From NCBI GenBank assembly GCA_045617325.1, contig JAZLIJ010000066.1:1787-65786 (forward strand): DNA of 64,000 nucleotides, written 5' to 3'. The translations under genes were made by a program, and so were the position numbers. Origin of the DNA: Fibrobacter sp. Lineage in GTDB: Bacteria; Fibrobacterota; Fibrobacteria; Fibrobacterales; Fibrobacteraceae. This document shows, piece by piece, positions 1,008 to 39,191 of this stretch (the stretch's first letter is position 1; each line of letters starts with the position of its first letter). The notes beneath the pieces were generated by a model, which was given only the letters and a program-made list of their open reading frames with translations, did not search any database and was not told the origin of the DNA.

Positions 1008-1874
1008 TCATTTTGTTCCTCCCTTGTCGCCAGGCGCTGAAGGTCCCGTTGCCGGGTCGTCTACTTTGTCGGAGAGGGGGAACATGGAAATGTTCAGTGC
1101 ATAAACTCTATCGGCGTGTTCGCTGCGACGTGCGAATTGCAAGAGTCCGCGACGAAATTCCTCGATTTTGTGCTTGATTTCCGGTAAATCCGCTTCGTCA
1201 GCGGTAAAGACAACACTTGAAATGTCGCGGTCTTCCGTTTTATGACGGTCGAGCGATTCCTGTGCAAGCTCCAGGGTATGCCTGTGGAAGTCGCGGACGG
1301 CGCGACTTTTCACTTCGCCACCGGTACTCAGAATCTGGTCCGTGATGTTCCAGCCGCCGCATCCATCGGGAACGACAAGCCCGAGCTGCTTCAGGATGCC
1401 AAGCGCGTTTCTCGCTTCATCCTGCGAAATGGGCGGGTTCAGGTGCTTCCCGAGGGAGGTTATGCTGCTTGTGTCCTTCGTGATGCCGATGAGGGCGCGG
1501 AGCGCGGCGCAGGCCCAGCTGCCAAAGTAGGCCATTTCAGGCGCCGAGAGAATTCTCGTCTCGAGCGAGCGGAGTTCCAGAAGCTTGTAGTAGAGTTCGG
1601 AGAGGGTCTGCTTCGCCTTTGTCTTGTTGAAGCGGTATAAAGTCTTGAAATATTCCGCTCTGCGATCGTCCAGGCCGCAGATGCGAATGAATACGGGAAT
1701 TGTCCCTTCGTTTAAATGTCCTTCTTTCTGGAATACTCTCACGAGCCAGGCCGGGTCCACGCCGGTTTTCTGGCCGAGGTAGCGATATGAAGTGAACGGG
1801 TTATCCTTCTTGGATTCGATGAACCAGTCCTTCAAAAATTCGCGATATTCTAGATAGTCTAAAACTTCAGGCAT
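1008..1874 (-). CDS. TIGR02147 family protein (Fibrobacter paralogous family, HTH-like N-terminus)
   Basis: ORF 1008-1931; likely start at MPEVLDYLEYREFLKDWF (1874), which matches the family N-terminal D/EY-REFLKD motif. It is a paralog of 30494-31372. Family assignment is from memory of the TIGRFAM description, not a search. Confidence 0.65.
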   Translation of the reverse strand: MPEVLDYLEYREFLKDWFIESKKDNPFTSYRYLGQKTGVDPAWLVRVFQKEGHLNEGTIPVFIRICGLDDRRAEYFKTLYRFNKTKAKQTLSELYYKLLELRSLETRILSAPEMAYFGSWACAALRALIGITKDTSSITSLGKHLNPPISQDEARNALGILKQLGLVVPDGCGGWNITDQILSTGGEVKSRAVRDFHRHTLELAQESLDRHKTEDRDISSVVFTADEADLPEIKHKIEEFRRGLLQFARRSEHADRVYALNISMFPLSDKVDDPATGPSAPGDKGGTK

Positions 1875-1935
1875 ACTCTCAATATATATATGGAGGCTTT
1901 CTCCAATGTAAATTTTTTTATTCAGCCCCAAAGTT

Positions 1936-1956
1936 CTGTTGAAAATTTTTCAACAG
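1936..1956. promoter_or_regulatory. perfect 10-bp-arm palindrome CTGTTGAAAA-T-TTTTCAACAG upstream of the TIGR02147 gene (candidate operator or weak terminator of the upstream operon)
   Basis: Read directly from sequence. It lies 62-82 nt upstream of the preferred ATG at 1874. No U-run follows on the minus strand, so it is not a canonical terminator. Confidence 0.3.
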
Positions 1957-2038
1957 TTTACACCAAAACACATACAATTTTAGAAAAAGTGTTGATAAAA
2001 TGCACTATTGTAAAAAAAAATATGCAAATTGGAGCGCT

Positions 2039-2926
2039 TTAGCGGTTGCTTGGAAAGTTTTCCGCCTCCAGGAAATTGAAAAGCTCCGGAATGAGAGCCT
2101 TGGCGTCGTTCATGCCTAGATTGTAGAAATCCTCGAGCTTGGACCTGTCCTTTTCAAGTCGCGTCATCTGGAGGGATTTGCTTGGGCGGATGATGAACGC
2201 TTTTTTACAGGATATCCACTGTTTTAGCAGTTCCTGGTCATCGTTGTAGCGGATGTGACGCTCGGCAATCGCCTTGACGAAAAGCGGATATTTTCGGTAG
2301 GCGCATCTTATCAGGGGCAGGAATGCGTTACGCGGCTTGACGTAATTTGCAGGCCGTGTCAGTACAATCACCTGCTTGTGAAAACCGAAATTGTCCATCA
2401 TCTTGAAGGGGATGCAGTCGCTCATGCTTCCGTCAAGGTATTTTTTCCCTTGGATAGGCACTATTTGGCTGAAAAGCGGAAGGGAGGCCGATGCGCGAAC
2501 ATAATTCAAGTCGTCCTCGTTCCTGAGGTCGTGTATGGCTGGGTATTCCGTCTGGCCGGTTGCTACATTGGTGCAGGTAACGTAAAATTGGGAGTTGGCT
2601 GCATTTTTTCTGAATGTGTCGTAGTCAAATGGGTCTACTTCTTGCGGGAGAGTATAGTAGCTGTACTTGACATCGAAAAAGTTGCCTGTGCGAATCAGGT
2701 TTGCAAATCCCATGTAGCGCTTGTCATCGGAATGCAGCACGTCGATGCGGTAATTTCGCTTGCGCTGTTCCGAAAGGTAGTTGCAGAGATGTGTTGCTCC
2801 GATGGACGATCCTGCGTATGCCCCGAATTGGAGACCGTTGTCGTGAAGCACGTCCAGGACTCCTGCCGTGTACGCTCCGTGCGTCCCTCCGCCTTCAAGA
2901 ACTAGCGCTGTATCATCGTATCTCAT
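2039..2926 (-). CDS. patatin-like phospholipase family protein
   Basis: Has an LEGGGTHGAYTAGV oxyanion-hole glycine loop, a GSSIG (GxSxG) nucleophile elbow and a YLDGSMSD catalytic Asp motif. Only 7 nt separate it from the upstream Nudix gene. Confidence 0.85.
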   Translation of the reverse strand: MRYDDTALVLEGGGTHGAYTAGVLDVLHDNGLQFGAYAGSSIGATHLCNYLSEQRKRNYRIDVLHSDDKRYMGFANLIRTGNFFDVKYSYYTLPQEVDPFDYDTFRKNAANSQFYVTCTNVATGQTEYPAIHDLRNEDDLNYVRASASLPLFSQIVPIQGKKYLDGSMSDCIPFKMMDNFGFHKQVIVLTRPANYVKPRNAFLPLIRCAYRKYPLFVKAIAERHIRYNDDQELLKQWISCKKAFIIRPSKSLQMTRLEKDRSKLEDFYNLGMNDAKALIPELFNFLEAENFPSNR

Positions 2927-2933
2927 AGGCGGC

Positions 2934-3464
2934 CTACAGCAGGGCTATCCACTGATAGTCCTTGGGATGGTCTACGAATCTTTCAGGGTGCGCCTTGTGC
3001 ATGTCGAGAAATTCCTGCTTCGACATCCATACGAAATCATCGACTTCACCGGGTTGCGGCACGAGACTTGCCTTTTCGCTATCGTCCAGGAGAATGCGGT
3101 AGGTGTCGTAGTATTCGTTGTCGAGGTAGGCGCCGCCATTCAAAATGTTCTCGTGCGTAGCTTCGAACAGGTACACCAAATCCTCCGCCTGCTTCTTTAC
3201 GCCCAGTTCCTCGGAAAGTTCGCGGAGCCCTGCGGTGCGGCTGTCGTCTCCTGCGGTGATGTGGCCTGCGCAGCTTGTGTCCAGAAGATTCGGGTTGTTC
3301 TCCTTCTGCTTGCTGCGGAGCTGGAAAAGAATGTTGCCGTCCTTGTCGAAAGCCCAGATGTGTACTGTCCGGTGCCATAGCCCTTTGCTATGGACTTCGG
3401 TACGTTCGGCGCTGTAGCCTGCGTGTGTTCCGTCCTTGTTCAAGATGTCTATGAATTCCTTCAT
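2934..3464 (-). CDS. NUDIX hydrolase
   Basis: Nudix box GHITAGDDSRTAGLRELSEELGV (Gx5Ex7REUxEExGU). Only 10 nt downstream of the kinase stop. Confidence 0.85.
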   Translation of the reverse strand: MKEFIDILNKDGTHAGYSAERTEVHSKGLWHRTVHIWAFDKDGNILFQLRSKQKENNPNLLDTSCAGHITAGDDSRTAGLRELSEELGVKKQAEDLVYLFEATHENILNGGAYLDNEYYDTYRILLDDSEKASLVPQPGEVDDFVWMSKQEFLDMHKAHPERFVDHPKDYQWIALL

Positions 3465-3474
3465 GGGGTTTCTC

Positions 3475-6030
3475 TTAGGCGTTTCTTAGAATTTTTTCCA
3501 GTTTGGCGACGATGCTTTGATAATCGTACAATAGATTTGCGTGATGCGATTCAATATAATCAAAATTCTTTTCCGCGTACGCCGTCTCGAAGTGTTTTGC
3601 ATAGGCGGATAGATTGAGGCTTCCGATGGTGAGAGATGAACTCTTGATGTTGCGGATGACCTTGTTGTAGTTTTCCCAGTCCTTTTCCTCAAAGAGTTTT
3701 TGCAGTTCTCCGTCTTTTCGCTTGTTGACGTATTCCTCCAATACATCGATGAAAAACTCCCTGTCGTTCATGCAATGGCTGATTCCTATGCGCGTGTCGA
3801 TGAAGTTCAGGCTTGAGAGAATCTCGTTTATGTTTCTCCGCGGGGATGGAATTGGGAAATGACTTGCTGTTGTCTCCGGCCCAAGGCTTTCCTTTGATGT
3901 GGACTCGTTGCTCTCGATGAAATCTGACGGGAGGTAAAGTCGGAGAATGGTGTATAGGGCGTCTTCGCGGATGGGCTTTGAAAGATAGTCCGTGAATCCC
4001 ATCTGCAAGTAGTCCTCTTTGGCATCTGTCATGGAATTTGCAGAAAGCATGATGATGGGCGTATTCTTGTTGGAATGCTGGATGGTTCGCATTGTTCTCA
4101 GAACTTCGACCCCGCTCATGACGGGCATCATGTGGTCCATGAAGATGATTTCGTAATGTGTCTGCTGGATATATTCAAGGGCGGTTTTCCCGTTCGAGGC
4201 TGCGTCGATTTTAATTTGTGTGTCTTTCAAAAATTCCTGCATGATGTGGATGTTCATGGGAACGTCATCGACAATCAGAATGCGGGCGTTTGGAGCCTTG
4301 ATGTTTGTGCTTGCCAATTCTTCCTGGAAACTCTGTTCATCTTTGCGTCTTGCCTCGAATTCTCCGATGGGACGCGTCTGCTTGACAATTTGCGGAAAGG
4401 AAACTGTAAAGGTGGAACCCTTTTCGTAAACACTCTTGACTTGGATTTTGCCATGCATCATGTCCACCAGGTGCTGCGTCAGGTTCAATCCGAGACCGGA
4501 GCCTTCGATGTTCCGGTTCTTCTTTTCTTCAAGACGCTGGAACCTGTCGAACAGTTTCTGCGAATCCTCTTCCTTGATTCCGATTCCTGTATCGGATACG
4601 GAGATGATGAGCTGTATTGGCTTTTCGCGCTGGACGACGCTTTGGTCAGGACCCATGTTCTCAAAATCCACCTTGAGCTGGATTTCGCCCTTGAAAGTGT
4701 ACTTGACAGCATTGGAGAGGAGGTTGTTTATGACTTGGCGAATGCGGAATTCGTCGCCTTCCAATCGTGACGGAAGCTCTGGATTGACGCAGACTTTCAG
4801 TTGCAGCGACTTGTCCTTTGCCTGGGTGCTGATGAGGTTGTAGCAGTCGGTTATTAAAGAAAATACGCTGTATTCCGATGCGATAAGCTCCATCTTGCCG
4901 GATTCGATTTTGGATATGTCCAGGATGCCGTTGATGAGCGACAGGAGCATCTGCCCTGCGGTCTTGATGTTCTGCGAGTAGCCTCGTAGCTTAGGATCGT
5001 TACATTCCTTGTACAGCACCGAGTTCATGCCGAGAATGCCGTTGAGTGGCGTTCGCATCTCGTGGCTCATGGTGGCGAGAAATTGACTTTTGGCCTTGCT
5101 CGACTTTTCGGCGGCGAGTTTCGCCTCTCGGAGGCTCTTGGCTGCTCTGTAGGAACGCTCCGAAAGATAAAGGTAAATGAAGCCTATGATGAATAGCAGA
5201 AGTAGAAGGCTGAAAACCCAGAGGATGAGGAATACGATGTGGGATAGTCCTGTGGCGACCGTATCTTCCGACACCATGCCGATGAGCTTGTAGCCAGGAA
5301 CGTCCAGTTCTGTTTCGAAGAAGTAGTAGCGTTTGCCTTTGATGGTGCTTGCCACGGCGACGGACTTGGACCAGTATAGCAGCTGGCTTAGTTTTGCCCT
5401 TACGGGCTTTGTGATGTCGCTTGCCCAGAAATTGATGTTGATTGGGGATTGGGTGCGGGAGCCTATAATTTCCCTGTCATTGTCGTCGATGACGATGGCA
5501 TATCCCTGGCCATTGAAACTCTGGATGCCAAAATGCGAAGAGGCCCTTTGTTCGTTGAAAAACTTGAAGAGGACGTAGCGGACGTTCTTGTTGTTGAATA
5601 CGGGGGTCGTGAGAAGTAGCCCGTGCCCCTTGACGTAGCTGATGGCCTGGTGCCCTTGGAAAGAACGCCTGATTCCTGGAAAAGTTTTTGTATTGATGAA
5701 CTCTTCTCCGTTGGAATGAAAGTGCGTTCCGTCGAGTGCTATGAGCCCGTAGGATTCCTGCGGATTGCTTTTTTTGTGGGAGGCTATGATTTTTGAAGAT
5801 AGCTCGTCATCGCCCTTGATTTCATCGGCCATGTAGGAGAGTTCGCTCAGTTGAAATTGAATCTTTGAGGTGAGAAGATTGGACAATTCCGAGGAATGCA
5901 GCGAGACCTGCTTTGAAACATGGTCCTCGAACAAGAGGGTGAGGCGGTTTTTGAGAAGAACGCTTACAATGCAGAGTACCGACAGGATGGTAATTGTGCC
6001 GATGAGCATTCGAAGGCTAATTTTTTTCAT
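3475..6030 (-). CDS. hybrid sensor histidine kinase/response regulator with degenerate C-terminal Hpt domain
   Basis: N-terminal TM, extracytoplasmic domain and second TM. H-box FLATMSHEMRTPLNGILGM, ATPase G-boxes (DTGIGI, GSGLGL) and receiver ILIVDDVPMN...FMDHMMPVMSG. The Hpt-like tail reads VIRNIKSSSLTIGS, with Arg (codon 3652-3654) where the phospho-His is expected. Confidence 0.9.
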   Translation of the reverse strand: MKKISLRMLIGTITILSVLCIVSVLLKNRLTLLFEDHVSKQVSLHSSELSNLLTSKIQFQLSELSYMADEIKGDDELSSKIIASHKKSNPQESYGLIALDGTHFHSNGEEFINTKTFPGIRRSFQGHQAISYVKGHGLLLTTPVFNNKNVRYVLFKFFNEQRASSHFGIQSFNGQGYAIVIDDNDREIIGSRTQSPININFWASDITKPVRAKLSQLLYWSKSVAVASTIKGKRYYFFETELDVPGYKLIGMVSEDTVATGLSHIVFLILWVFSLLLLLFIIGFIYLYLSERSYRAAKSLREAKLAAEKSSKAKSQFLATMSHEMRTPLNGILGMNSVLYKECNDPKLRGYSQNIKTAGQMLLSLINGILDISKIESGKMELIASEYSVFSLITDCYNLISTQAKDKSLQLKVCVNPELPSRLEGDEFRIRQVINNLLSNAVKYTFKGEIQLKVDFENMGPDQSVVQREKPIQLIISVSDTGIGIKEEDSQKLFDRFQRLEEKKNRNIEGSGLGLNLTQHLVDMMHGKIQVKSVYEKGSTFTVSFPQIVKQTRPIGEFEARRKDEQSFQEELASTNIKAPNARILIVDDVPMNIHIMQEFLKDTQIKIDAASNGKTALEYIQQTHYEIIFMDHMMPVMSGVEVLRTMRTIQHSNKNTPIIMLSANSMTDAKEDYLQMGFTDYLSKPIREDALYTILRLYLPSDFIESNESTSKESLGPETTASHFPIPSPRRNINEILSSLNFIDTRIGISHCMNDREFFIDVLEEYVNKRKDGELQKLFEEKDWENYNKVIRNIKSSSLTIGSLNLSAYAKHFETAYAEKNFDYIESHHANLLYDYQSIVAKLEKILRNA

Positions 6031-7117
6031 CGACTTCTACTCCCTGGACGAACCAATTGAAGTTTTCCTGCATTTCGTAGTCTGTCATGCTTTCGCCGGA
6101 GTCAATTCTCACGACGCCTGCGTTGTCAACAATCTTTCCGTAGAAGACATCGAATGAGCCGTTTAAAAGATGCTGCCATTCTTTTGCAACAAAAGCCCTT
6201 GTTTCCGGGCTGACGCGTTTGGTGAAAGGGGCTAGCGAGATGATTCCGCTTTCGATTCCGAGCCAGTAATTCTTGTTTGAGTATTTTCCCTGGATAACCT
6301 CGAGGATGCGGGGCTTGTAGAATTGTTCCCAATTCCAAAGGGCTGCTGTCATGAAGTTCTTTGGATAAAGCTTGCTGTTGTCGAAGTTGTAACCGATGAT
6401 GCCGATATCATTTTTTTCTGCAATTTCGTAGGGGCTAAGCACGTCGGTATGGACCGTCAGAATGTCGATGTTATGATTTTGAATAAGTTTCTCGGTCGCC
6501 TTTGCTGCGATATCGGAGTCTGTCCAGGAACGAGTCCATGTCACGTGGACGGTTGCTTCGGGATTCACCTTTTTGACTCCCAAGGTGAACGCGTTGATTC
6601 CGCGGATGACTTCCGGGATGTCGAATGCGGCTACATAGCCGATGTGCCCGTTTTTTGTTTCCATACCGGCTACGATGCCGGACAGGTAGCGTATCTGGTA
6701 AATTCTTGCAAAGTAGGTCGAAAGGTTGCGGGAGCGCTTGGTCCCCGTGGCGTGGAAAAATTTGACTTCTGGGTGGAGCTGCGCTACAAGCAACTCGTAT
6801 GGACCGAAGCCGATGGAATTGCATACGATGATTCTTGCTCCATCGGCGATGGCTTTTTCCATGATGGGAATGCTGCTTGAATCCAGGGGGACGTTGTCGT
6901 AATAGGCTACGTCAAGGTTCAAGTCGCGAGCCGTCTTTTGCATGCTGATGTAATGCGACTCAGACCAGCTGTGATCGTCTTTCGGACCGTTCATGAGAAG
7001 GGCGACTTTCATTCCCTCCTTGGAAATCTCTGCATCGTAGTCATCGCTCCTTGTGAACCAAAGCCCGAGGGCGATGGTTAAGAGAATGGATACTATGATG
7101 ACAGAAAAAAACTTCAC
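6017..7117 (-). CDS. BMP-family (Med/PnrA-like) periplasmic ligand-binding protein, membrane-anchored
   Basis: N-terminal TM anchor. BMP-like blocks include KVALLMNGPKDDHSWSESHY and GYVAAFDIPEVIRGINAFTLGVKKVNPEATVHVTWTRSWTD. It overlaps the downstream kinase start by 14 nt and is 7 nt from the upstream kinase stop. Confidence 0.7.
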   Translation of the reverse strand: MKFFSVIIVSILLTIALGLWFTRSDDYDAEISKEGMKVALLMNGPKDDHSWSESHYISMQKTARDLNLDVAYYDNVPLDSSSIPIMEKAIADGARIIVCNSIGFGPYELLVAQLHPEVKFFHATGTKRSRNLSTYFARIYQIRYLSGIVAGMETKNGHIGYVAAFDIPEVIRGINAFTLGVKKVNPEATVHVTWTRSWTDSDIAAKATEKLIQNHNIDILTVHTDVLSPYEIAEKNDIGIIGYNFDNSKLYPKNFMTAALWNWEQFYKPRILEVIQGKYSNKNYWLGIESGIISLAPFTKRVSPETRAFVAKEWQHLLNGSFDVFYGKIVDNAGVVRIDSGESMTDYEMQENFNWFVQGVEVDEKN

Positions 7118-7124
7118 GAGAGCC

Positions 7125-9833
7125 TCACATGCAGTTCTTTATCATGTCCAGCAGCGCTTTGTACTTGGCCATGACCATGGAGTGGTTTGACTTGATGTAG
7201 CTGTAGCGCTTGTCCTTGCATGCCTGTTCCAGGGCCTTTGCCGCTTCGGCTATATCCGTGGCGCCTATGGTTTGGCTTGAACTCTTGAGAGCGTGGATTG
7301 CGATTTGGTAGTTCTGCCAGTCCTCGGAACCGAAGTAGCTGGAAAGTTCGCCCGACTTGTCGCCTGTCTGGTATTCGGCAAGGATTTGGAGGTAGAAATT
7401 CTCGTCATTGATGCAGTAGCTTAGTCCCTGCTTTACATCAAGGATTTTTTCGAGATTTTCCATTTTCGAGTTGTTGTCGGAAATCTGCTCGGGTTCAGCG
7501 ATGGGCTGGGTTATCGTCTTGAATATGACTGTGGATGGCCGCTGCCTGCCTTCGATAGTGTGGCTGGTCTGTATCCTGTGGACTTTTGTCTTGGATGACA
7601 TGGTGGATGAATTTTCGCTTCCGTTCTGTTTTGTTGGCGATGTAAGCGTCTCGCTGTCCATGTCGTCGCTAGTTAGAATCAGATTCTTGGGCAGGTACCA
7701 CTTCAGCATTCGGATGAAGTCGTGCTCCTTGATAGGCTTGGAGAGGTAGTCTGCGAAACCTTCCTTGAGATAGTTCTCCTTTGCGCCGACGATAGCGTTT
7801 GCGGTGAGCATGATGACCGGGGTGTCCTTGTTGATGTATTCTCCCAAGTCCTTCATTTTCTGGAATGTCTCAAGACCATCCATGACAGGCATCATGTGGT
7901 CGAGGAAGATGAGGTCGTAGTGATTCTGCTGTACCATTTGCAGGCATTGCTTGCCGTTGGATACCAGGTCAACGTTTATCTTTGTATCCTTGAGGAGCCC
8001 CTGTACGACCTTCAAGTTGATTTCGACATCGTCAACGACGAGAACCTGGGCGCCCGGGGCGAACAGCTTGTCGTTTCCGACGGATTGCAAAATCATGGAA
8101 CTCTTGTACTTGTCGGAGAAGTTTCCCATGGGCTCGTCGCTCTTGACGATTTGCGGAATTTGAAGTGTGAATACGCTTCCCTTGCCGAGTTCGCTTTCCA
8201 CGTTGATGGAACCGTTCATCATTTGGACCAGCTGCTTTGTGATGCTAAGGCCGATTCCTGTACCTTCCAGGTAGTTGTTCGTCTTGTTGTCAACGCGGTC
8301 GTAATTTTCAAAAATCTTCTTGAGATTTTCAGGCTTGATTCCTATGCCTGTGTCCTTGACGACCACGTTCAGCATGACTTCTGTTTCAAGTCCAAGCCCG
8401 ATGTGTGCCGTTGGCCTGTTCTCGAATGAAACGCTTAACGATATGCTTCCTTCTTCAGTGTACTTGACGGCATTGGAAAGCAAGTTGTTGATAATTTGCC
8501 TGATTCTCACCTCGTCACCGTAGAGCTTGGATGGTAACATGGGGTCGGTATTGATGAAGAACTTGATGTTCTTGGCGTGTGTCCTTGCCGAGGTGATGTT
8601 GTAGCAGTCGTTCAATACAGAGAACAGCTCGTAGCTTGTGTTTTCGAGCTGCATCTTGCCAGCTTCGATTTTCGAAACATCCAGAATATCGCTGACGATG
8701 GATAGCAAAAAGTGCCCTGTACTCTGAATGTTGGTTGCGTATTCCCTGATGGATTCCTTGTCGGTTTCCTTCATTATCATTGCGTTCATGCCGAGGATGC
8801 CGTTGATTGGGGTGCGGATTTCGTGGCTCATCTTGGCGAGGAAGGATTTCTTCGCCCTTGTGGCGTTGAGGGTGCGGATCTGGTTCCTGTGATTTGCAGT
8901 GCAGAAGAATGCAATCAAGAGGAATAGAATCAGTGAAATGGCAATGTTTCTCTCGAATGTCTGGTGCACTTTGGCGAAAAGTTCGTCCTCGTTCATGATG
9001 ATGGACACGTACCAATTGTCGTAAATGGTGGTTGTGAACACCATGCGCTGCTTGCCGTCCATTTCAATGTGGAAGGGCTTGTCCTTGGAAGCCATGATGA
9101 GCCGTGCAAGTTTTTCCTTTTCTGTTCCCCAGTATTTGTCGCTAAGGTAGTTTTCGCCTATGTCGGAGTCGTTGGACTTTGCTATGACGATTCCTGTACG
9201 GTCCAGGAGAATGCTTGTGCCCATGTTGTTGATTTGGACTTGGCGAAGCAGTTCCTGGAGGTTTGTTGCGGTGAGATCCAGTGAAACGACGTTTTTTTTG
9301 TCGGCAAGCCTGCGACAGATGGAAATGATGATGGATTTTGTCTGGCTGTCCACGTATGCAGGGACCAGTGCAATTTCTCCCTTGGCTCGAGCGGCTTCTA
9401 TATACCAGGGACGCTCCATGGGGATGTAGTCCTCCTCCGGGACCCAGCCGACTCCATCTATATAAGTATCGTTGAAATAACCGTAAAAGCCGGTGAACGC
9501 TTCCCCAATTTGTCTGGAGTAGTTGTTTGTGAAGTGGATAAGAATATCCTTGATGTCTTCTGTGCTTTTTCCTTCTTTGAGCATGTGCTCAATGAGGTCT
9601 GCCGTGATATTGACTGTGGAAATGCTCTTTAGCAGATGGTTGCGGAGCTTTTCGGAACTTTCGTTTACGGATTTTTGCCCGATGGTGATGATATCTTCCT
9701 TGGCTAGGTCCGAAAATGACTTGAATGTGAAGCTTACGATACCTGCAATGGCGCCTATCGTCATGATAAGCGTAATGATATACTGGATCCAAAACTTTGT
9801 TTTTTCTTTTTTTGTTTCTGCGTCAAAATTCAT
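7125..9833 (-). CDS. hybrid sensor histidine kinase/response regulator with Cache-like sensor and intact Hpt domain
   Basis: TM, roughly 250 aa Cache-like extracytoplasmic domain, then TM. H-box FLAKMSHEIRTPINGILGM, ATPase DTGIGI/GTGIGL, receiver VLVVDDVEINL...FLDHMMPVMDG, and Hpt motif AIHALKSSSQTIGA (His codon 7293-7295). Confidence 0.9.
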   Translation of the reverse strand: MNFDAETKKEKTKFWIQYIITLIMTIGAIAGIVSFTFKSFSDLAKEDIITIGQKSVNESSEKLRNHLLKSISTVNITADLIEHMLKEGKSTEDIKDILIHFTNNYSRQIGEAFTGFYGYFNDTYIDGVGWVPEEDYIPMERPWYIEAARAKGEIALVPAYVDSQTKSIIISICRRLADKKNVVSLDLTATNLQELLRQVQINNMGTSILLDRTGIVIAKSNDSDIGENYLSDKYWGTEKEKLARLIMASKDKPFHIEMDGKQRMVFTTTIYDNWYVSIIMNEDELFAKVHQTFERNIAISLILFLLIAFFCTANHRNQIRTLNATRAKKSFLAKMSHEIRTPINGILGMNAMIMKETDKESIREYATNIQSTGHFLLSIVSDILDVSKIEAGKMQLENTSYELFSVLNDCYNITSARTHAKNIKFFINTDPMLPSKLYGDEVRIRQIINNLLSNAVKYTEEGSISLSVSFENRPTAHIGLGLETEVMLNVVVKDTGIGIKPENLKKIFENYDRVDNKTNNYLEGTGIGLSITKQLVQMMNGSINVESELGKGSVFTLQIPQIVKSDEPMGNFSDKYKSSMILQSVGNDKLFAPGAQVLVVDDVEINLKVVQGLLKDTKINVDLVSNGKQCLQMVQQNHYDLIFLDHMMPVMDGLETFQKMKDLGEYINKDTPVIMLTANAIVGAKENYLKEGFADYLSKPIKEHDFIRMLKWYLPKNLILTSDDMDSETLTSPTKQNGSENSSTMSSKTKVHRIQTSHTIEGRQRPSTVIFKTITQPIAEPEQISDNNSKMENLEKILDVKQGLSYCINDENFYLQILAEYQTGDKSGELSSYFGSEDWQNYQIAIHALKSSSQTIGATDIAEAAKALEQACKDKRYSYIKSNHSMVMAKYKALLDMIKNCM

Positions 9834-10025
9834 AATCGTTCTTGGTTGAATTTTAAAATTCGATGAAGATATACCTTTATAAATTTAACATGAATTGGGT
9901 GGGAAATTTTAGACAATCTTTTTTTTGTGTAATATTTTTTTAAGAAAATGGGGCTGTAGGCGTTTTTGTCTATTGCATGAATGTTTGCAAATTGTGAATA
10001 AAATGTGAGCATTTTACCGCGCCAT

Positions 10026-10950
10026 ATAATTAATTATGAGTTATAAATTACGAAGTATGAGATTTTTGCATCTGGAGATGCGGATTTAGGGAACAATGAA
10101 CAATGAACAATGAACAATGAACAATGAACAATTAACACAAATGCGTAAGGCGAGAGCAGCGCGAATGCTTGCATTCGCATTGCCGAGCCAAGCATTGAAC
10201 GCCGTAGGCGTTCGCAGCGGCGGTTATGAAATATCAAAATGCAAGCATTTTGCTGCTTCATAACCTTGCATGCTGTTGGCACGGGAGCGGAGCGACTGTG
10301 CAATGAACAATGAACAATGAACAATGAATAGGAAATTATGAGTTATGAGAGTAAATGTTGCCTTGGATCCTCCCCAAAGGGGATAAGAATTGATTCAAAT
10401 CAAAGATATGACTTTTTTAGTAGGAAGTAGACAGTAGGCAGTAAACAGGAGTAAGTGAGGCGCTTCGCGCGGGGCTGGCTTGAGTTATGAATTATGAGTT
10501 ATAAGTTATGAGATGAAAGTGAGGCGGCTTCGCCGCAGTTTTATTCCGAAACAAGATGCGTTAGGGATGCGCAAGTGGGATTCCGGCTCGGAGGCCGGGA
10601 TGACGGGGCCGAAAACGGTCATTCTGGAGGCTCGGAGAGAGAATCAAGGATGAAGGATGAAGGATGAAGGATGAAGGATGAAGGATGAAAGATGAAGGAT
10701 GAGTTATGAAGTATGAGTTATGAATTATGAGATTGGATGATTTGCTAGACGGTTTCGACATCTTTTTCGTTTCCGTATGCTCCATGGACCATGCGCTCCC
10801 TATCTGCCGACAGGCAGACTCGCGATGACATTCTTGTAAGTAAAACGAAAAAAGCACAAAACCCAAGCCCTGCGCATCTCCAGCAGCAATTCCTGTTTAC
10901 TAACCACCAACCACTAACCACTTGGAAATGAGCTTTCCAAACGGCAACCA
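10026..10950. repeat. mosaic intergenic element cluster A (heptamer arrays + GC hairpin modules)
   Basis: A gene-free gap of about 1.1 kb, of which 10026-10950 is this mosaic. Heptamer arrays at 10034-10061, 10091-10125 (GAACAAT x5), 10301-10328 (CAATGAA x4), 10418-10459, 10485-10519, 10646-10736 (13 units, mostly AAGGATG) and 10900-10922. Hairpins: gcgaatgc/gcattcgc 10161-10178, gaacgcc/ggcgttc 10197-10213, caaaatgc/gcattttg 10235-10252. Modules are shared with the other clusters (see findings). Confidence 0.9.
10646..10736. repeat. 13-unit heptanucleotide tandem array (AAGGATG x6, AAAGATG, AAGGATG, AGTTATG, AAGTATG, AGTTATG, AATTATG, AGATTGG)
   Basis: Counted directly; a single 7-nt register is kept over 91 nt while the unit sequence drifts. 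Confidence 0.9.
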
Positions 10951-10954
10951 TCAT

Positions 10955-11851
10955 CTACCGATGCCAGAATGTAGTCACTTTTTGGTAACGGGAGATATCT
11001 GCCATCGCAGCGGCGGCGGCGGCGGCTTTTTCATGCGACTCGAAAATGCCGAAGACGGAAGCTCCGGAGCCACTCATCAGTGCGCATTTCGCTCCGAGTT
11101 CCAGGAACTTCTGCTTCATTTCAGCGACAAGCGGATGCTTCGGGAAGACGGAAACTTCGAAAGCGTTGTAGAAAGAATCTGGATGCAGACAATAGGATGT
11201 TGCAGACAAATTGCCGGATGCCGGATGCTGAAGCGCAGAAGATGCATTTTCACAATTCGCCTTGTACTTTTCCCAGCGATCGGGGCCGGATTTTGGGACG
11301 CCCGCGTAGGCATCCTTCGTCGGAACGGCATCCAAAGGAGTCGCAATGAGGAGCGCCTCGCCCGCTGGCAAATCCAGCGGAGGAACGAAAGTCAAACGTT
11401 CACCGATACCTTCTGCAAAGGCGGTTCCGCCACGAACGAGGAACGGCACGTCGGCACCGAGTTTTGCACCGATTTGCTCCAGCGTTTCAAACGGAAGATT
11501 CAAATTCCAAAGCTTGTTCAGCAGACGAAGTGTCGCGGCAGCATCGGCACTGCCACCGCCAAGACCAGCCCCCAGCGGCATCACCTTCTCAAGATGAATG
11601 TCGGCTCCGAGCGAGACATTCGCAAAATTTTTCAGCGCAACCGCCGCCTTGTACACCAGGTCCGATTCCACGGGGTAATCCTGCGGCTTGTTATAAGTCA
11701 AGCAAATTTCGCCATCTTCACGAAGCGTCGCCTCGACGGTATCGCCTGCGTCAACGGTCTGGAAAACAGTGCCAAGGTCATGATAGCCATCTTCGCGTTT
11801 GCGGATGACATCGAGAAACAAGTTGATTTTTGCAGGAGCGTATTCGATCAT
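10955..11851 (-). CDS. ispE: 4-(cytidine 5'-diphospho)-2-C-methyl-D-erythritol kinase
   Basis: N-terminus APAKINLFLDV, GHMP-kinase ATP loop PLGAGLGGGSADAAATL, and 298 aa length are typical of IspE. Confidence 0.9.
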   Translation of the reverse strand: MIEYAPAKINLFLDVIRKREDGYHDLGTVFQTVDAGDTVEATLREDGEICLTYNKPQDYPVESDLVYKAAVALKNFANVSLGADIHLEKVMPLGAGLGGGSADAAATLRLLNKLWNLNLPFETLEQIGAKLGADVPFLVRGGTAFAEGIGERLTFVPPLDLPAGEALLIATPLDAVPTKDAYAGVPKSGPDRWEKYKANCENASSALQHPASGNLSATSYCLHPDSFYNAFEVSVFPKHPLVAEMKQKFLELGAKCALMSGSGASVFGIFESHEKAAAAAAAMADISRYQKVTTFWHR

Positions 11852-12039
11852 AGCGGTTGGTTTGTTAGTTTGTAGTTAGGTTTACAGCAGAAAGTCGCTA
11901 AACCTATCGTCTTTCATCTATACCCTATTAATTCTTTTGCGACGGGAAGTGCGCTGACGCTGAAAATTTAGCTTTTTGCGATTATTTTAGCGACAAGAAA
12001 TGCGAAAGTTCACCAAAACAAGCCTCAAAAGCGACAATG

Positions 12040-12274
12040 TACAGATAAATCTAGGGAAAAGACGGCATTTATCGGCCCACCTGCAAAGTTCCGTGTTTTA
12101 AGGCAAAAGTAAACGGCTTGCAGAGCGAGTTCCCGGCTCGTAGGCCGGGATGACGGTGAAGTGAATATGCTGGAAAATGCACAAGCAGCATTCCCTACAG
12201 CTTCTCGCCTCAGCAATTTTTCTGCTTACTAACCACCAACCACTAACCACTCCGCCGCAGATTTAACGCAGCAA
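12040..12274. repeat. mosaic intergenic element cluster B
   Basis: Contains module TCCCGGCTCGTAGGCCGGGATGACG (12131-12156), the 23-mer CTAACCACCAACCACTAACCACT (12229-12251, identical to 10900-10922) and CCGCAGATTTAA (12255-12266). It ends at the ftsK stop. Confidence 0.8.
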
Positions 12275-15200
12275 TCACCCGAATTTTCCGGAGCGTTCGA
12301 GATTCATGAGACCGTCCATATCGACGAGCATGGCGCGGGGCTTCGAATTGCCCTTGCTAGGTCCGCAGACGCCAAGGCCGTAAAGCTGATCCACAATTTT
12401 TCCGGCGCGGCTGTAGCCTACGCTGAAGTGGCGCTGCACCGCCGAAGTCGAGAGGCCGTTCACGCTAATCGCCCATTCGGCGACCTCGAACAGCAGCTTG
12501 TCCAGCTTCTCGTTTTTCAGATTGCCGCCTTCTTCCCCATCCTCGTCATCGCCGCCAGTAATGTCGAAGGATTCCACCTGCGGATAGCAGACGTTCTGGT
12601 TGGAGCAGGCATCGGCCAGCTTTTCCGCCTCCTCGTCGCTCAGGAATGCGCCATGGACGCGTTCCGGGTCAGGGGCGTTCACGGCCTTGAAAAGCATATC
12701 GCCGCGACCGAGCAGTTTTTCGGCGCCGGCGTGGTCCATCACCGTGCGGGCGTCAATCTGCGAAGCGACCTTGAAACTGATGCGGGTCGGCAAGTTCGCC
12801 TTGATGATGCCCGTGATAACCTTCACCGACGGACGCTGCGTCGCAAGCACCAGGTGAATTCCGACGGCACGCGCCTTTGCGGCTAGGCGGGCGACCGACT
12901 TTTCAATTTCCTTGCCGGCGACCATCATCAAGTCCGCCATTTCGTCGATGATGACGACGATGAACGCCATGCGGTGCCCGCGATCTTCTTCGGGGACTTC
13001 GTCCGGGAGCTCGTTGGCATCGAACTTCGCATTGAAACCGCCAATGTTTCTCACCTTCGCCATGGCAAGCACTTCCGTGCGGCGGTCCATTTCGTAGCAG
13101 AGCCACTGCAGCGCCTGGATGGCGATTTCGGGCTTCGTAATCACCGGGGCGAGCAAGTGCGGAATGTTCTCGTACATCTTGAGTTCCACGGCCTTCGGGT
13201 CCACAAGAATCATGCGGAGCTCATCGGGCGTCTTGCTGAAGAGAATGCTCGCCATGAGCGCATTGATGCAGACGGACTTACCGGAACCCGTCTGACCGGC
13301 GATGAGCAAGTGCGGAGCCTTCGCCAAGTCCATGGTGAAAGCCTCGCCCGTAATGTCCTTTCCGAGCGCCACGAGAATTTTTTCCGGGGACGGCTTGAAA
13401 TGTTCGCTCATGAACACGTCCCTGCAAAATACCGTCTGGAACTTGCGATTCGGAATTTCGATGCCCACGGCGGCCTTGCCAGGAATCGGAGCCAGGATGC
13501 GCACAGAACTCACGCGAAGCGGAAGCGCCAAGTCCTCCTGCAACGCAGAAAAGCGGCTTACCTTCACGCCCGGTCCCGGTTCCACTTCGAAGCGCGTAAT
13601 CATGGGGCCCGTCTCGCAGCCGATGACGCGACCGCGCACCTTGAAGTTCTCGAGTTTTTCTTCGAGCATCTTGCCGATATCGTTCAATTCCTCTTCGGTG
13701 TAATCGGCGGTCTGCACCTCATGCGTATCGAGGATATCCTCGATGCTTGGAATCTTGTACTTGTCGAAAGCGGCGGTTGAATCCGGATGCGGAATTGCAG
13801 CGGCACTCCCTTCGGGCATTCCGGAGCGTTCCAGAATCGGCTCGAAATCGTTTTCTTCCAGCGTATTTTCCGGTTCATCAACTTCTTCAGGAGCCTCGTA
13901 ATGGAAACTTGTCGGCGCATCGTCCTGTTCTGCTGTGGAAGCAGAGGCTGCAACCGAGGATGCAGCGGTTTTCGCAGATACCCTAACAGCAGACGCATCC
14001 GCCTTCCGGGATGCTGACTTCGGCTCCGCCTTGGCGCGGGACTTTTTGGCAGTAGCGGCACGGGTCGCAACCAACGTCTCATTTTGTTCGCCCTTATCCG
14101 CTTGCGTTTCTGACGATTCCGTCGGAACTTCCTGGACAGATTCTACCGCAGAAGATTCCGAGCGGCGCACGTCGCCCTTCACCTGCATTCTGCCGGGGCG
14201 TCCCTTTTCCCAGTCGATAAAGTCGCGTGCCCTGCGAAGCGCCGCAATCCGCTCCTTGATTTCAAGAATCTGAAGCGCATTCATACGATGCTCATTCAGG
14301 CGCAGTTCCTCTTCGAGACGGCGAATTTCAGGATCCCTGTCATCACCCACCTCGTTACCATAATCAAATTCAGGTACAGCTGGAACTGGAGCTTCGACAA
14401 TAGTCGGCGCATCAAAATCACGCCCCGAGTCCATCTCAGGAATATTTCGAGATTTTTCTATGCGAGGTTTTTCAATCACCTGCGTCGGAGCTTCATCAGG
14501 TTCAATGAAAACCTCCTGTTCATCAAGCCAGTTGCGACGTCCATTGAACGGCACAACCTTCCCTTTTCTACGCATTTTCGATTCATTCGGCACAAAAATC
14601 ATAGTTTCGTCGTCCATCATCACACCTTTACGACGACGGTTCGATTCCACAGAAAGTTCCACAGGTTCGGCGTCCACGACCTCGGCCGTTTTCTCCCTCG
14701 AAGAAATCAAATTTGACAAATAGTTCGCCGTCTGCCCGATAAAGCGGAAATGCCTCGGTCGAAGGCCAAACGATAGAACAAGAATCAAGCAGAACGCGAC
14801 TAGCGAAATAATCAGCGACGCGAACTTGGATTCCATTCCGAAAACAGGAATCGAAACATTCTGCACCAGGAACTGTCCAATGACGCCACCGTTCATGGAG
14901 AGAATTTCATCGGAAACATGCGCAACACCGTAATTTTTCAGTGCCATGAAAAAAGACACATTCAAAACCAAAAGCGAGAAACCAATTGCAAAACGCAGAA
15001 GTTTAACACGAAGCGAGGAGAGCGCAATTAAAAGCCCCCAAAGCACAAGGGCAATTGTAAAGAAAATAACCGAGACCTTGCCGAAAACAAGCGTCACGAC
15101 ATGGGGAAAAAGTCCGCCAAAATAAGGTCCAAGCCAATTATGCGAAGCCCCGCTGTAGACGCCAGTCACACATCCAAGCAGAAGCATGCAACCCACGGCA

Positions 15201-18539: not shown

Positions 18540-18718
18540 AGGGAGAACCTGTTTCAAAACACCGAACAGGCAGTAAAAGACAAATGGTTTGATTTCACAG
18601 ATAAGATGCAGGAAGCATCCTCGCCCAATCGAGATGCTTTAGCAATGCAACGGCGGGATCCGGCTCGGAGGACGGAATGATTTTTTAGTAGACAGGGAGA
18701 AGTCTTGCAACCACAAAA

Positions 18719-24295: not shown

Positions 24296-25008
24296 GGGCT
24301 AGTGGTTGGTGGCTAGTGGTTCGTAAGCAGGATTAGTTTGGCGGCTGCGCCGCGTGGGTTGTTGCCGCGAGATGCATTTGCGATGCGGCGTTAAATCTGC
24401 GGATGTAGGGGCTAGTGGCTAGAGGCTAGGTTCTAGGGTGGAGAGTGGCGCCTTCGGCGCAGGTTTACTCAGCTGCGAGATGCAGTAGGGATGCAACTTG
24501 CGCATTTTCCTGCACACCCCCCTTCCACGTCATCGCGAGCCTGCCTGTCAGCGGGCAGGGAGCGAATGCGATTTACGCATCTTTCAGCATTCCCCCCCAT
24601 CCACGTCATTGCGAGCCTGCCTGTCGGCGGGCAGGGAGCGACGCGACGAAGCAATCTCTTGAGGCTGTTGTTTAATTATAAGTTATGAATTACGAGACGC
24701 TTTAGAGTCGCATCAATAAACTGCAAGACCCTCAATCAAGTCGAGGGAGACAAAGAGGAAAAAAAACTCAAACCCTAATCCGCGCATTTCTAGATGCAAC
24801 CATCCTTAAGCCCAAATTCTACGCCTACAGATTCATAGCGACATGCACAACCAATCTCATAATTTATAATTTATAGTTCATAATTGTTCATTGCACAATC
24901 GCTTCGCTCTTGTGCCAAATGCTGGCCTCGGTCATGTCCGTGCAAGCACGGCCGCGACACTCGACCTACGCATTTGTGTTAATTGTTCATTGTTAATTGT
25001 TAATTGTC
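24296..25008. repeat. mosaic intergenic element cluster D
   Basis: Starts at the proC stop and ends 1 nt before the ATG at 25010. Heptamer arrays at 24298-24322, 24411-24438, 24674-24696, 24856-24897 and 24974-25008. Two tandem copies of module CACGTCAT(C/T)GCGAGCCTGCCTGTC(A/G)GCGGGCAGGGAGCGA lie at about 24523-24570 and 24601-24650. Also carries TTAAATCTGCGG at 24391-24402. Confidence 0.85.
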
Positions 25009-25009
25009 C

Positions 25010-26323
<1,314 letters not shown>

Positions 26324-26333
26324 CAAACTTCTG

Positions 26334-27269
26334 CTATTTTCGCTTTTCTCGCGGATGGAACTGCCGATGTTCCAATTTTATAAAATCTTTATCGATATGC
26401 GTATAAATTTGTGTTGTACTGATATCGGCGTGCCCAAGCAATTCCTGCAATACACGAAGATCCATGCCTGCTTCTAGGCAATGCGTCGCGAAACTATGCC
26501 GAAACGTATGTGGTGAGACTTGCTTAGACAAGTGCTGCGTATGTTGCTGGACTATTTTCCATGCCCCCATGCGACTCATCGGCTTTCCGCGAGAATTTAG
26601 AATAACATTATCCGTACAAGGTTGCGTCAGCGGACGTCCTTCTTCAAGCCAAACCCGCAAATTATCTTTTGCCTTGCTTCCAAGCGGAACGAGACGCTGT
26701 TTGTTCCCCTTGCCAATCGGCAAAAGCCATTCATTTTCCAAATCCAGCTGAGAAACTTTGATATCAAGCGTTTCGGAAATACGAAGTCCGGCGCTGTACA
26801 TGAGCTCAAAAAGAGCGGTATCACGCAAAGGATTTTTTCCATTTGCAGCGCTTTCGAAAACACTGTCAACTTCCTCACACGTCAGAAATTCTGGGAGATA
26901 TCGACCTAGTTTCGGATTTGCAAGCATCGATTCGGTACTATAGTCATACTCGCCCTGATTTTGCATATACTTGAGAAATCCACGGAGGCTTGAAAAATGT
27001 CTAGCTACGCTTGTAGCCGCATAAAAGCCATCGTCATCAGCTCCCTTTTTAAATACAGTTTTTTTTTCAATAATACGCCCTGCCATCCAAGTTAAAAATT
27101 CATCCAATACAGGTGGCGTCAATTCTTTTAAATCTAATTTTCGATTATCAAGCCATGCTATAAAATGACGCAAATCTTCCTGGTAGCTTTGGATTGTCTT
27201 GGGTGAAAGACTACGTTCCACTCCTAAATGCGAAAGGTAAGCATCAAGTCGATTCGAATTAAGACTCAT
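26334..27269 (-). CDS. site-specific tyrosine recombinase, XerC/XerD family
   Basis: SAM-like N-domain (LSPKTIQSYQEDLRHF). Catalytic region RISE...HTFRHSFATHCLEAGMDLRVLQELLGHADISTTQIYTH, carrying the R..HxxR..Y signature. Confidence 0.85.
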   Translation of the reverse strand: MSLNSNRLDAYLSHLGVERSLSPKTIQSYQEDLRHFIAWLDNRKLDLKELTPPVLDEFLTWMAGRIIEKKTVFKKGADDDGFYAATSVARHFSSLRGFLKYMQNQGEYDYSTESMLANPKLGRYLPEFLTCEEVDSVFESAANGKNPLRDTALFELMYSAGLRISETLDIKVSQLDLENEWLLPIGKGNKQRLVPLGSKAKDNLRVWLEEGRPLTQPCTDNVILNSRGKPMSRMGAWKIVQQHTQHLSKQVSPHTFRHSFATHCLEAGMDLRVLQELLGHADISTTQIYTHIDKDFIKLEHRQFHPREKRK

Positions 27270-28130: not shown

Positions 28131-28697
28131 ATGGGCGCAATCAAGGAACCTGCAAAGGTCAAAATTATTGTAGGCATCTTGGCAAAAGATGCCGCTGCCG
28201 TGGAAAACGTTCGAGCCACGCTTCGAGAAAAATTCGGCGAGGAAGACTTCAACCTCCCCCCGTTCCCGTTCACGTTCACAAACTATTACAAGGAAGAAAT
28301 CGGCGAAGCCCCCGTGCGCGCCTTTTTCAGCTACGAGCAGCTCGTGGACCGCACCGAAATCGTCGATATCAAACTTTGGACAAACGACGTGGAACTGCAA
28401 ATCGCCGAAGCCGCAGGAACTCCCGGATTACGTCCCGTGAACCTCGACCCCGGCTACATGACGCTAGGCCAGTTTTTCCTCGCGACAACCAAGGACCAGC
28501 GACAGCGCGTCTACATGCAGCGCGGCATTTTCGTCGAACCGACGCTCTACTTTCAGGACGGACATTTCCACCACTTCGACTGGACCTACCGCGACTATCA
28601 AAGCGAGTCCTACATCAAGTACTTGGAAGAAGTGCGCAAGCGCCTCGCCTACCAACACACCACAGGGAAACCGTACAATAAGAGAAATGAAGGATGA
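28131..28697 (+). CDS. DUF4416-like protein
   Basis: N-terminal KVKIIVGIL and PFPFTFTNYYKEEIG blocks recalled from the DUF4416 family; not verifiable here. Confidence 0.5.
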   Translation: MGAIKEPAKVKIIVGILAKDAAAVENVRATLREKFGEEDFNLPPFPFTFTNYYKEEIGEAPVRAFFSYEQLVDRTEIVDIKLWTNDVELQIAEAAGTPGLRPVNLDPGYMTLGQFFLATTKDQRQRVYMQRGIFVEPTLYFQDGHFHHFDWTYRDYQSESYIKYLEEVRKRLAYQHTTGKPYNKRNEG

Positions 28698-28839
28698 AGG
28701 ATGAAAAACGAATCTTTTGATTTTTCTCATTTTGTTTACTCTACGGCGTAGCCGTCATTATTTACATCTTTCATTTTTCACCTTTCACTTTTCATTTTCA
28801 AAAAAAAATACAACCTGCCCCCAGAAATCTCAAACCTAT

Positions 28840-37771: not shown

Positions 37772-38024
37772 ATATAACCTAGTCATGCATCGCAGGAGCT
37801 TTCATCGCGCTAGCCATCAGCATGAAGAGTTTCATCCACAGAAAGTTTTATGTTGCAAACGCGTCATTGCACAGGCAAAGGGATTTTTTGCAATTTTTCA
37901 AAACAAAATAATCACTATTTATGTTTTTCATTCAAACTATAAAAAAAAATAAAATCCCTTGACAGAGCACTTAATTCAGTATATATTTGAGCAGTAGCAC
38001 AAAAGTGCAACACACGGAGAACTT

Positions 38025-38633: not shown

Positions 38634-38689
38634 AATGAGGACTGAATATTCAAGATTAAATTTTGCAACAAGCAAAGCTATCAGCAAAA

Positions 38690-39187: not shown

Positions 39188-39191
39188 CCCC

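Follow-up and report, generated by a model that had tools for sequence, protein, structure and literature searches.

Many of the long intergenic gaps in a 64,000-nucleotide stretch of Fibrobacter sp. DNA (contig JAZLIJ010000066.1; the whole stretch is called the window here) are occupied by composite repeats. These regions are probably Fibrobacter intergenic repeat mosaics assembled from three kinds of element that are already known: heptanucleotide arrays, CGTC-tagged repetitive extragenic palindrome (REP) hairpins, and modules that resemble miniature inverted-repeat transposable elements (MITEs). The evidence lies in the composition and abundance of the regions, the change of array length by whole units, the polarity of the arrays, their position at start codons, inverted arms that can fold, sharing across the genus and the class of the hairpin called module 1. 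An initial annotation had described the regions as a genome-specific family of heptamer arrays and GC hairpin modules. All the arrays and modules that it listed were found at, or within a few bases of, the listed positions (Table 1). Its statement that nearly every long gap carries such parts holds for many gaps, but is overstated, since about 9 of the 17 gaps of at least 150 nt do so. The mosaics are non-coding, as had been proposed: an open reading frame (ORF) across them translates to HPSSFIL-type repeats, no Pfam domain was detected in the ORFs that cross them, and a protein search with the ORF crossing module 3 gave zero hits. No transposase is encoded among the 43 ORFs of the window, again as first described, and the only recombinase is XerC/D-like (26334-27269).

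The window belongs to the chromosome of a Fibrobacter species, and its G+C content is about 48%. The best named relatives of its Rho, a protein of 719 aa that carries a long N-terminal insertion, come from Fibrobacter sp. UWB4, UWB5 and UWH1 and from F. succinogenes, and window sequence occurs in public sequencing runs of gut and horse metagenomes. Three other Fibrobacter loci, used for comparison, keep the order ftsK / CHASE2-cyclase / panC / dNK / HPPK / rho / proC / sigma-54 activator: L127, L128 (strain UWB5) and L129 (strain UWH1). The proC-activator gap measures 709 nt in the window versus 55-87 nt in these loci, and the ispE-ftsK gap 424 nt versus 150 nt in other Fibrobacter. The genes ruvA and ruvB (38025-40229), which are usually neighbours, are parted by a mosaic of 558 nt, and a metagenome strain keeps this arrangement at more than 99% identity. 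It is the amount of repeat, and not the kinds of part, that sets the window lineage apart from other Fibrobacter.

The heptamer arrays are the most regular component. Tandem Repeats Finder returned about 19 rows of period 7, every one of them intergenic, with arrays at all the sites that had been annotated; among exact tandem repeats of at least three copies and periods of 4-12, only period 7 occurred (six arrays in the window). The density of period-7 repeats per 100 kb was 25 in the window, 9 in UWB5 and 36 in UWH1, versus 1.3 in 873 kb of unrelated bacterial DNA. The 64 kb hold seven or more families of unit. The arrays have the properties of heptanucleotide long simple sequence repeats (SSRs), namely head-to-tail 7-nt units in at least three copies, whole-unit change between strains, and intergenic placement with the strand rule of Rehm 2015. 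The strain comparison suggested by the initial annotation bore this out, as one metagenome contig, with its anchor in proC, is 7 nt shorter at 24309 and carries an additional GGCTAGA at 24416. Other Fibrobacter species carry the same kind of repeat: UWH1 has period-7 arrays in four gaps, L127 has CGTCATCCTCGAcctgaTCGAGGATCC in the proC-activator gap, and in UWB5 a (TTCTAAG)3 array abuts the ATG of the sigma-54 activator, with complementary AGAACTTAG units upstream and a hairpin with z = -8.

The arrays are also ordered by composition. On the + strand, purine-rich, C-poor arrays (CAATGAA, GGATGAA, TTATGAG, GGCTAGT, ATGAAGG) stand on the left of a gap and G-poor arrays (ACTAACC, TTCATTG, TTAATTG, ATTCACT, CTTTCAC) on the right. 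This polarity was found in six gaps by Tandem Repeats Finder alone and in 11 of 11 when gaps read by eye were added (window, L128 and L129), with no counter-example. Since the arrangement reads identically on both strands, the sense strand, whatever the orientation of the genes, shows purine-rich, stop-codon-bearing units behind the stop codon and G-poor ones ahead of the start codon. The suggestion that mosaic C is antisense to its genes was dropped for this reason, as its inverted array pair reads purine-rich and then G-poor on both strands. The inverted array pairs can fold (z = -8, -3.9 and -3.2).

The annotation regarded this periodicity as undescribed, yet heptamer repeats have been published for Xanthomonas, Nostoc, Calothrix and Beggiatoaceae (PMC4679880, PMC4692102), and heptamers are the predominant class of long SSR in prokaryotes, their general excess being credited to Mrazek 2007, as cited in PMC4679880. 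The intergenic heptamers GGGAATC of Xanthomonas and GGGGAYT of Nostoc have their G/purine-rich strand as the non-coding strand upstream of ORFs and as the coding strand downstream (Rehm 2015, PMC4692102). They share with the window the strict 7-nt period, the intergenic location, the inverted pairs and the strand rule. However, those genomes have one or a few units that form G-quadruplexes, whereas the window units are A/T-rich, fall into the many families counted above and are ordered in a composite leader behind a conserved TCTCATAA anchor. The strand rule also applies here, although the phylum is unrelated and its units are quite unlike the others, and this suggests that some general constraint or mechanism underlies heptamer repeats. 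The TAACTGA direct repeats of Beggiatoaceae, Cyanobacteria and Bacteroidetes (MacGregor 2015, PMC4679880) likewise stand a few nucleotides upstream of starts, have stop codons in their units and occur in genomes with few canonical ribosome-binding sites. They consist of a single unit with no hairpin lexicon described, unlike the many units of the window. In cyanobacteria, short tandemly repeated repetitive (STRR) heptamers are reportedly interrupted by small dispersed repeats. Arrays broken by small hairpin-forming repeats and nested insertions would thus be common to both, although the cyanobacterial inserts are said to be 21-27 nt long, of other sequence and from another phylum, compared with 87-163 nt for module 3.

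Several arrays end directly at genes. In the window, G-poor arrays end 0-5 nt before the starts of the sigma-54 activator (25010), ruvB (39192) and a tadA-like deaminase (52687), and the same abutment is seen at the activator in UWB5 and at ispE, the activator and tsaE in UWH1. Five leader copies were aligned: all have the invariant CAATCTCATAA, followed by a drift of the unit in fixed order from CTCATAA through TTCATCC and ATTCACT to TTCATTG/TTAATTG. By BLAST, the leader at 39083-39140 matches UWH1 (L129 19348-19404), and window 38844-38926 matches L127 12201-12119. The parts thus form a cassette with a constant order: purine-rich arrays after stop codons, GC hairpins, the conserved anchor, and G-poor arrays 0-5 nt before start codons. 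What seems new is the phylum, the diversity of units and this ordered cassette with its anchor. The window leaders are A/T-rich and G-poor, as in Bacteroidota. Shine-Dalgarno-like tetramers were found upstream of 13 of the 43 window genes in a lenient test; together with the conserved leader at the starts, this suggests that translation may begin without a Shine-Dalgarno sequence. A scan for sigma-70 promoters and terminators gave no significant enrichment (23 versus 15.3 and 30 versus 26.1).

A role under selection, in translation or in termination, is an appealing idea, since the G-poor leader could be a platform for ribosomes or Rho. The cassette would then be a device for gene expression: the G-poor array would serve as a Shine-Dalgarno-independent landing pad for the ribosome (via S1) or as a Rho-loading site right before the start, the purine-rich array would provide stops in three frames, pairing of the arms would join stop and start or mask the leader, and the number of units would tune expression. 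It fits the seven start codons abutted by arrays in three species, the uniform polarity at every gene orientation, the scarcity of Shine-Dalgarno-like motifs, the conservation of the leader between species at different genes, and the fact that ruvA-ruvB and proC-activator stay co-directional across their mosaics; the same proposal was made for the TAACTGA repeats (MacGregor 2015, PMC4679880). However, sister species manage with gaps of 55-87 nt, many arrays are far from any start (258 nt in mosaic A, for example), folding shows no sense-strand bias and RNA depth tracks DNA copy number. Such a device is a possible explanation, but clearly not the favoured one. Its stronger form, a genus-wide selected intercistronic device in which the heptamer leader would take the place of a Shine-Dalgarno sequence and act as the loading platform for ribosomes or Rho and unit slippage would tune housekeeping genes, is considered rather improbable.

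The arrays might also be phase-variation (contingency) switches, with slippage turning the genes beside them on and off. Whole-unit insertions and deletions between strains, and arrays placed between putative promoters and start codons, would suit such switches. The neighbours, however, are housekeeping genes (ruvB, proC, ispE, tadA-like, tsaE) and not surface or virulence genes, arrays follow stop codons as well, and a 7-nt change outside the coding frame has no obvious on/off effect, so that this explanation is unlikely.

The second component is a set of hairpins. Module 1 occurs four times in the window (10583, 12133 and 31679, with a degenerate copy at 18660) versus 0.05 expected by chance, and module 2 has two exact copies (24529 and 24605) versus 0 expected, plus an inverted copy at 10790-10829 that is 85-86% identical. 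An unpaired CGTC tag is present in module 1 at 10604-10580, 12154-12130 and 31700-31676 and in module 2 at 24526 and 24602, and is lost in the 18660 copy. The stem of module 1 has 8 bp and starts with A-T and T-A (ATCCCGGC/GCCGGGAT), and in module 2, a hairpin tagged CGTCAT, the loop encloses a second GC hairpin. The published superfamily of CGTC-tagged REPs is defined by the CGTC tag, a stem of 8-9 bp starting with AT and a CCA tail; it is mostly alphaproteobacterial, and its members 'apparently lack a dedicated transposase' (Di Nocera 2013, PMC3733652). The stem of module 1 agrees with this definition, and a C follows its palindrome in all three tagged window copies. As in published CGTC REPs (PMC3733652, PMC11893778), module 1 lies downstream of genes with its tag on the sense strand; counting L127, the tag is on the sense strand of flanking co-directional genes in seven of seven tagged copies. 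Only four copies in 64 kb sets it apart from those REPs. The main text of PMC11893778 makes no mention of the phylum Fibrobacterota.

The pattern CCGGCTCGNNGGCCGGGATGACG was found in at least 119 stretches, with hosts that include Alpha- and Gammaproteobacteria, Dehalococcoidia, Acidimicrobiia, Flavobacteriales and Patescibacteria. The cross-phylum consensus, among the matches listed, is tGGATCCCGGCTCGGrGGCCGGGATGACG; its flanks are unrelated and often lie just past terminators, and its opposite strand reads CGTC-ATCCCGGC-loop-GCCGGGAT-CCA, with the CCA tail. The small GIY-YIG nuclease SsnA binds and cuts the Neisseria NTS motif CGTCATTCCCGCGMAVGCGGGAATCYRG (CGTCATTCCCGCG..CGGGAATC), and does so only when the DNA is single-stranded; SsnA homologues in many bacteria are flanked by NTS-like hairpins (Nat Commun 2025, PMC11893778). 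Judged by sequence, module 1 and the CGTCAT-tagged module 2 fit the class of CGTC-tagged REPs and NTS-like, Ssn-related motifs, and the suggestion that module 1 is novel therefore lacks support. A GIY-YIG protein of about 95 aa is encoded in nine loci of nine genomes, with 2-7 hairpins of this class in the flanks (mean 3.9 within 250 nt) versus 0.55 for 557 other genes. This clustering in nine unrelated genomes re-finds the published Ssn/NTS association. Elsewhere, the CGTC hairpin forms part of longer units repeated in tandem: in Pseudoalteromonas (L027, L071, L092 and L110) the periods are about 103 and 136 nt, with up to 10 copies per 8 kb, and in Alteromonas (L023) the period is 48 nt.

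The mosaics had been compared with bacterial interspersed mosaic elements (BIMEs). In Neisseria intergenic mosaic elements (NIMEs), dRS3 brackets the repeat units, and BIMEs are GTAG REPs with defined linkers. Both NIMEs, which are cited in section 7 of PMC3733652, and the BIMEs of E. coli are, like the window mosaics, large intergenic composites: REP-type hairpins are intermixed with members of other repeat families, and no transposase lies inside. The comparison is thus apt in principle, as transposase-free mosaics of recurring modules are found in each case. It does not extend to the palindromes, because no GTAG-tagged family is among the repeats: the tagged hairpins of the window carry CGTC, or GTCAT at the base of the stem. 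Neither NIMEs nor BIMEs contain heptamer arrays, unlike the window mosaics.

Smaller modules were also recovered. Module 4 has three copies versus 0.07 expected, and the GCGAGATGCAnnnGGGATGCG box, which includes the string GGGATGCGCA of the initial annotation, has five versus 0.10 expected. Six GC triloop hairpins are present, each preceded by a heptamer array as had been stated. Module 6 (TGCGCATYTY) is weak, because its five matches compare with 1.5 expected and two of them are within genes.

The third component comprises module 3 and a 76-nt element, which look like lineage-restricted, high-copy, MITE-like elements. Both copies of module 3, of 87 nt (24894-24980) and 163 nt (10138-10300, - strand), are inside a TTCATTG/TTAATTG array, and the inverted equivalence that had been annotated is real, as 10103-10311 matches 24883-25011 inverted with an indel of 79-80 nt. 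Some metagenome contigs lack the nested insert (joint 10195>10276), an empty-site joint (10137>10304) was found, and tandem copies one heptamer apart occur at loose ends of the metagenome. The ends CACAATCGC and GCATTTGTG match at seven of nine positions when inverted, in two copies only. Both copies are flanked by TTCATTG-type heptamers, which are either a duplication or merely the target array. Pairing in the inner hairpin is maintained although the stem sequences of the two copies differ (GCGAATGCAAGCATTCGC versus CCGTGCAAGCACGG). An origin of the heptamer arrays from 7-bp target duplications of module 3 was set aside; most arrays hold no insertion, and module 3 is readable in two copies only. 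The 76-nt element has two window copies, mutually inverted and 91-95% identical.

Abundance was read from depth in gut-metagenome contigs. Single-copy genes of the organism have a word depth of 25-35, whereas bins with CAATGAA/TTAATTG arrays and module 3 reach 1600-10700, the 76-nt element (31535-31610) reaches 1600-2000 versus 32-35, and the bin with the module 1 copy at 12130 (12066-12156) about 1250. Module 3 and the 76-nt element thus have many dispersed copies, at 50-400 times single-copy depth as an upper estimate. Most remaining parts of mosaic B are at 2-3 times. The enrichment beyond the window that was predicted for the modules is therefore present, at about 40-400 times single-copy depth for several of them. 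In one strain variant, 31725-31877 is replaced by 44 nt.

The claim that the family is genome-specific and previously undescribed is by now largely refuted and very unlikely to be right. Module 3 is seemingly confined to a narrow lineage, since JGI metagenome contigs yielded no copy of it (no exact hit for the 5' end; 8 hits for the 3' end, all chance matches without the element), and a literature search on Fibrobacter intergenic repeats found no paper, with searches by repeat sequence strings returning primer coincidences only. However, arrays, hairpins, the leader and composite modules recur in other Fibrobacter (UWH1, UWB5 and a metagenomic Fibrobacter among them), module 1 occurs in many phyla, and both it and the heptamer SSRs are published.

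If the mosaics are indeed combinations of known elements, the heptamer arrays would arise and be resized by replication slippage, and purine-rich and G-poor arrays would mostly form an inverted pair able to fold around small GC hairpins. By analogy with Neisseria, the CGTC hairpins may spread, or persist, through Ssn-type transactions on single-stranded DNA. Module 3 and the 76-nt element would spread as non-autonomous elements; module 3 appears to have landed inside heptamer arrays and then taken its nested insert, with the 76-nt element placed between GC hairpins. The joint result would be the inflation of gaps of 55-150 nt in sister species to 420-1100 nt in the window. The mosaics would be carried passively in transcripts, and their main effects would be secondary structure of RNA or DNA between cistrons and an unstructured, Shine-Dalgarno-free leader before some genes.

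Several points weigh against this explanation. The loop of module 1 has 6 nt where 4-5 nt are published, of three window copies only one has the CCA tail, and no Ssn-like GIY-YIG gene was found in the window or in L127-L129. For module 3, only two copies speak for terminal inverted repeats and target duplications. Copy numbers are summed metagenome contig depths that may pool several Fibrobacter species, and are thus upper estimates of copies per genome. Mosaics are contained in metatranscriptome contigs, but these are unstranded, their depth ratios mirror DNA copy number, and DNA carry-over is possible. Region A folds with z = -4.2 and region C with -4.4 relative to shuffled sequence (region B, -0.8), yet folding energy shows no consistent preference for the sense over the antisense strand, which argues against strong selection on one RNA strand. 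It is very improbable that structured small RNAs or cis-regulatory RNAs are specified by the mosaics, for in spite of the folding of regions A and C, the maintained pairing in module 3 and the metatranscriptome sequences, Rfam 15 covariance models gave no match in the mosaics at the gathering score or at E ≤ 1 (in agreement with the expectation that no known non-coding RNA family coincides with them), region B, module 3 alone (z = -0.9) and the 76-nt element alone (-0.6) fold poorly, both strands fold about equally, and the high copy number and nested insertions better suit mobile DNA.

As mosaics of known elements, these regions add the phylum Fibrobacterota to the range of heptamer SSRs and of CGTC-tagged REP / NTS-like hairpins, both of them classes of repeat that are poorly understood. 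The repeats also break short-read assemblies of Fibrobacter, and contigs that hold ispE end at them.

Table 1. Repeat features of the window, followed by the small GIY-YIG genes of other loci
Feature	Position	Strand	Context and parts
Mosaic A	10026-10950		between ispE (10955-11851, -) and hybrid histidine kinase (7125-9833, -); on + strand six purine-rich heptamer arrays, then one G-poor
(GAACAAT)x6.7 array	10091-10137	+	resumes as (CAATGAA)x4 at 10301-10328, module 3 in between
Module 3 copy, 163 nt	10138-10300	-	ends CACAGTCGC...GCATTTGTG; within TTCATTG array; nested 79-80 nt insert at about 10196-10275
CAGTAGG/AAGTAGA array	10415-10456	+	followed by GC hairpin GCGCTTCGCGC (10459-10472); array 10421-10447 93% identical to L129 19178-19204
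TTATGAG-type array and GC triloop hairpin GAGGCGGCTTCGCCGCAG	10477-10545	+	composite matches UWH1 (L129 1349-1416 and 19368-19308)
GCGAGATGCAnnnGGGATGCG box	10551-10571	+	further copies at 24367, 24475, 31648 and 52810 (-); weaker one at 18629
Module 1	10576-10606	-	CGTC-tagged REP / NTS-like hairpin by sequence fit, CGTCATCCCGGCCTCCGAGCCGGAATCCCA on - strand
(GGATGAA)x8 array, then TTATGAG-type array ending ...TATGAGATTG	10646-10733	+	- strand is leader-type element starting CAATCTCATAA
Module 2, inverted copy	10790-10832	-	CGTCAT-tagged composite hairpin
Terminator-like hairpin and T-run	10854-10875	-	downstream of ispE
TTCCTGTTTACTAACCACCAACCACTAACCACT	10890-10922	+	- strand is GGTTAGT array right after ispE stop codon; 94% identical to 12219-12251
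Mosaic D	12124-12272	-	after ftsK stop codon: module 4 (12255-12272), GGTTAGT array (12228-12251), module 1 (12130-12154), in that order
Degenerate box and degenerate module 1	18624-18680	+	module 1 copy without CGTC tag
Mosaic B	24296-25009	+	between proC and sigma-54 activator (ATG at 25010)
Mosaic B, units			two sets of GGCTAGT array, GC hairpin and box; tandem module 2 pair 24526-24565 and 24602-24641; purine-rich array 24671-24698
Mosaic B, right part			G-poor array 24848-24893; module 3 24894-24980; TTAATTG array 24977-25007
ATGAAGG array, GC hairpin ACGGCGTAGCCGT, CTTTCAC array	28687-28794	+	inverted array pair folds, z = -3.9
Mosaic C	31462-31895	+	module 4, GGYTAGT array, GC hairpin, 76-nt element (31535-31610), GC hairpin, box, module 1 (31676-31700), complementary array (31840-31868)
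CGTCAT-tagged hairpin and T-run GCGTCATTGCACAGGCAAAGGGATTTTTTGCAATTTTT	37863-37894		downstream of PALP enzyme gene; terminator-like, built on same tag as module 2
Mosaic E	38634-39191	+	separates ruvA from ruvB; ATGAAGG array 38689-38722; CCCTATTCAC array 38756-38798; GTCAT...ATGAC hairpins 38800-39070
Mosaic E, leader element	39079-39186	+	CAATCTCATAA, TTCATCC, ATTCACT x5.7, ATTGTTA x6.4; stops 5 nt before ruvB ATG
Mosaic G	52688-52960	-	upstream of tadA-like deaminase; leader 52757-52688 abuts ATG at 52687; box 52810-52830; GC hairpin GGCGCCGGAGGCGCC; partner array 52869-52898
76-nt element, inverted copy	53288-53447	-	91-95% identical to 31535-31627; plus GC hairpin, degenerate array, module-4-like end
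Small GIY-YIG gene	L012 6399-6698		
Small GIY-YIG gene	L031 6555-6824		
Small GIY-YIG gene	L038 3101-3373		
Small GIY-YIG gene	L062 2261-2521		
Small GIY-YIG gene	L067 3980-4255		
Small GIY-YIG gene	L070 5549-5818		
Small GIY-YIG gene	L071 3494-3766		
Small GIY-YIG gene	L073 4104-4373		
Small GIY-YIG gene	L120 4055-4327		

Further observations concern the surroundings of the mosaics. The GC skew changes sign (from about +0.1 to -0.1) and the AT skew flips at about 11-12 kb, exactly at mosaics A and D (10000-13000), and Fibrobacter synteny is also lost to the left of ispE/ftsK. The switch may mark the origin or terminus of replication, or else the breakpoint of an inversion; a dif site of the E. 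coli type was looked for near it and not found. The XerC/XerD-like tyrosine recombinase gene is on the - strand directly downstream of the sigma-54 activator, and other genes are at the syntenic position in L127-L129. A region of low G+C (35%) at 44000-46200 contains two ORFs without a Pfam hit (44325-44924 and 45435-45980) and is possibly foreign DNA. Two paralogous hybrid histidine kinase genes (3475-6030 and 7125-9833) have DNA stretches that are 75-84% identical at a constant offset of about 3761 nt, and there are two DUF4423 paralogues (1008-1931 and 30494-31372), with mosaic C upstream of the start of the second. Finally, a pair of 56-nt palindromic repeats (AAAAATAGGCTCCAAA...TTTGGAGTCTATTTTT; 53013-53068 and 53192-53247), 80% identical and within an ORF without a Pfam hit (52962-53444), is a repeat family distinct from the mosaics.

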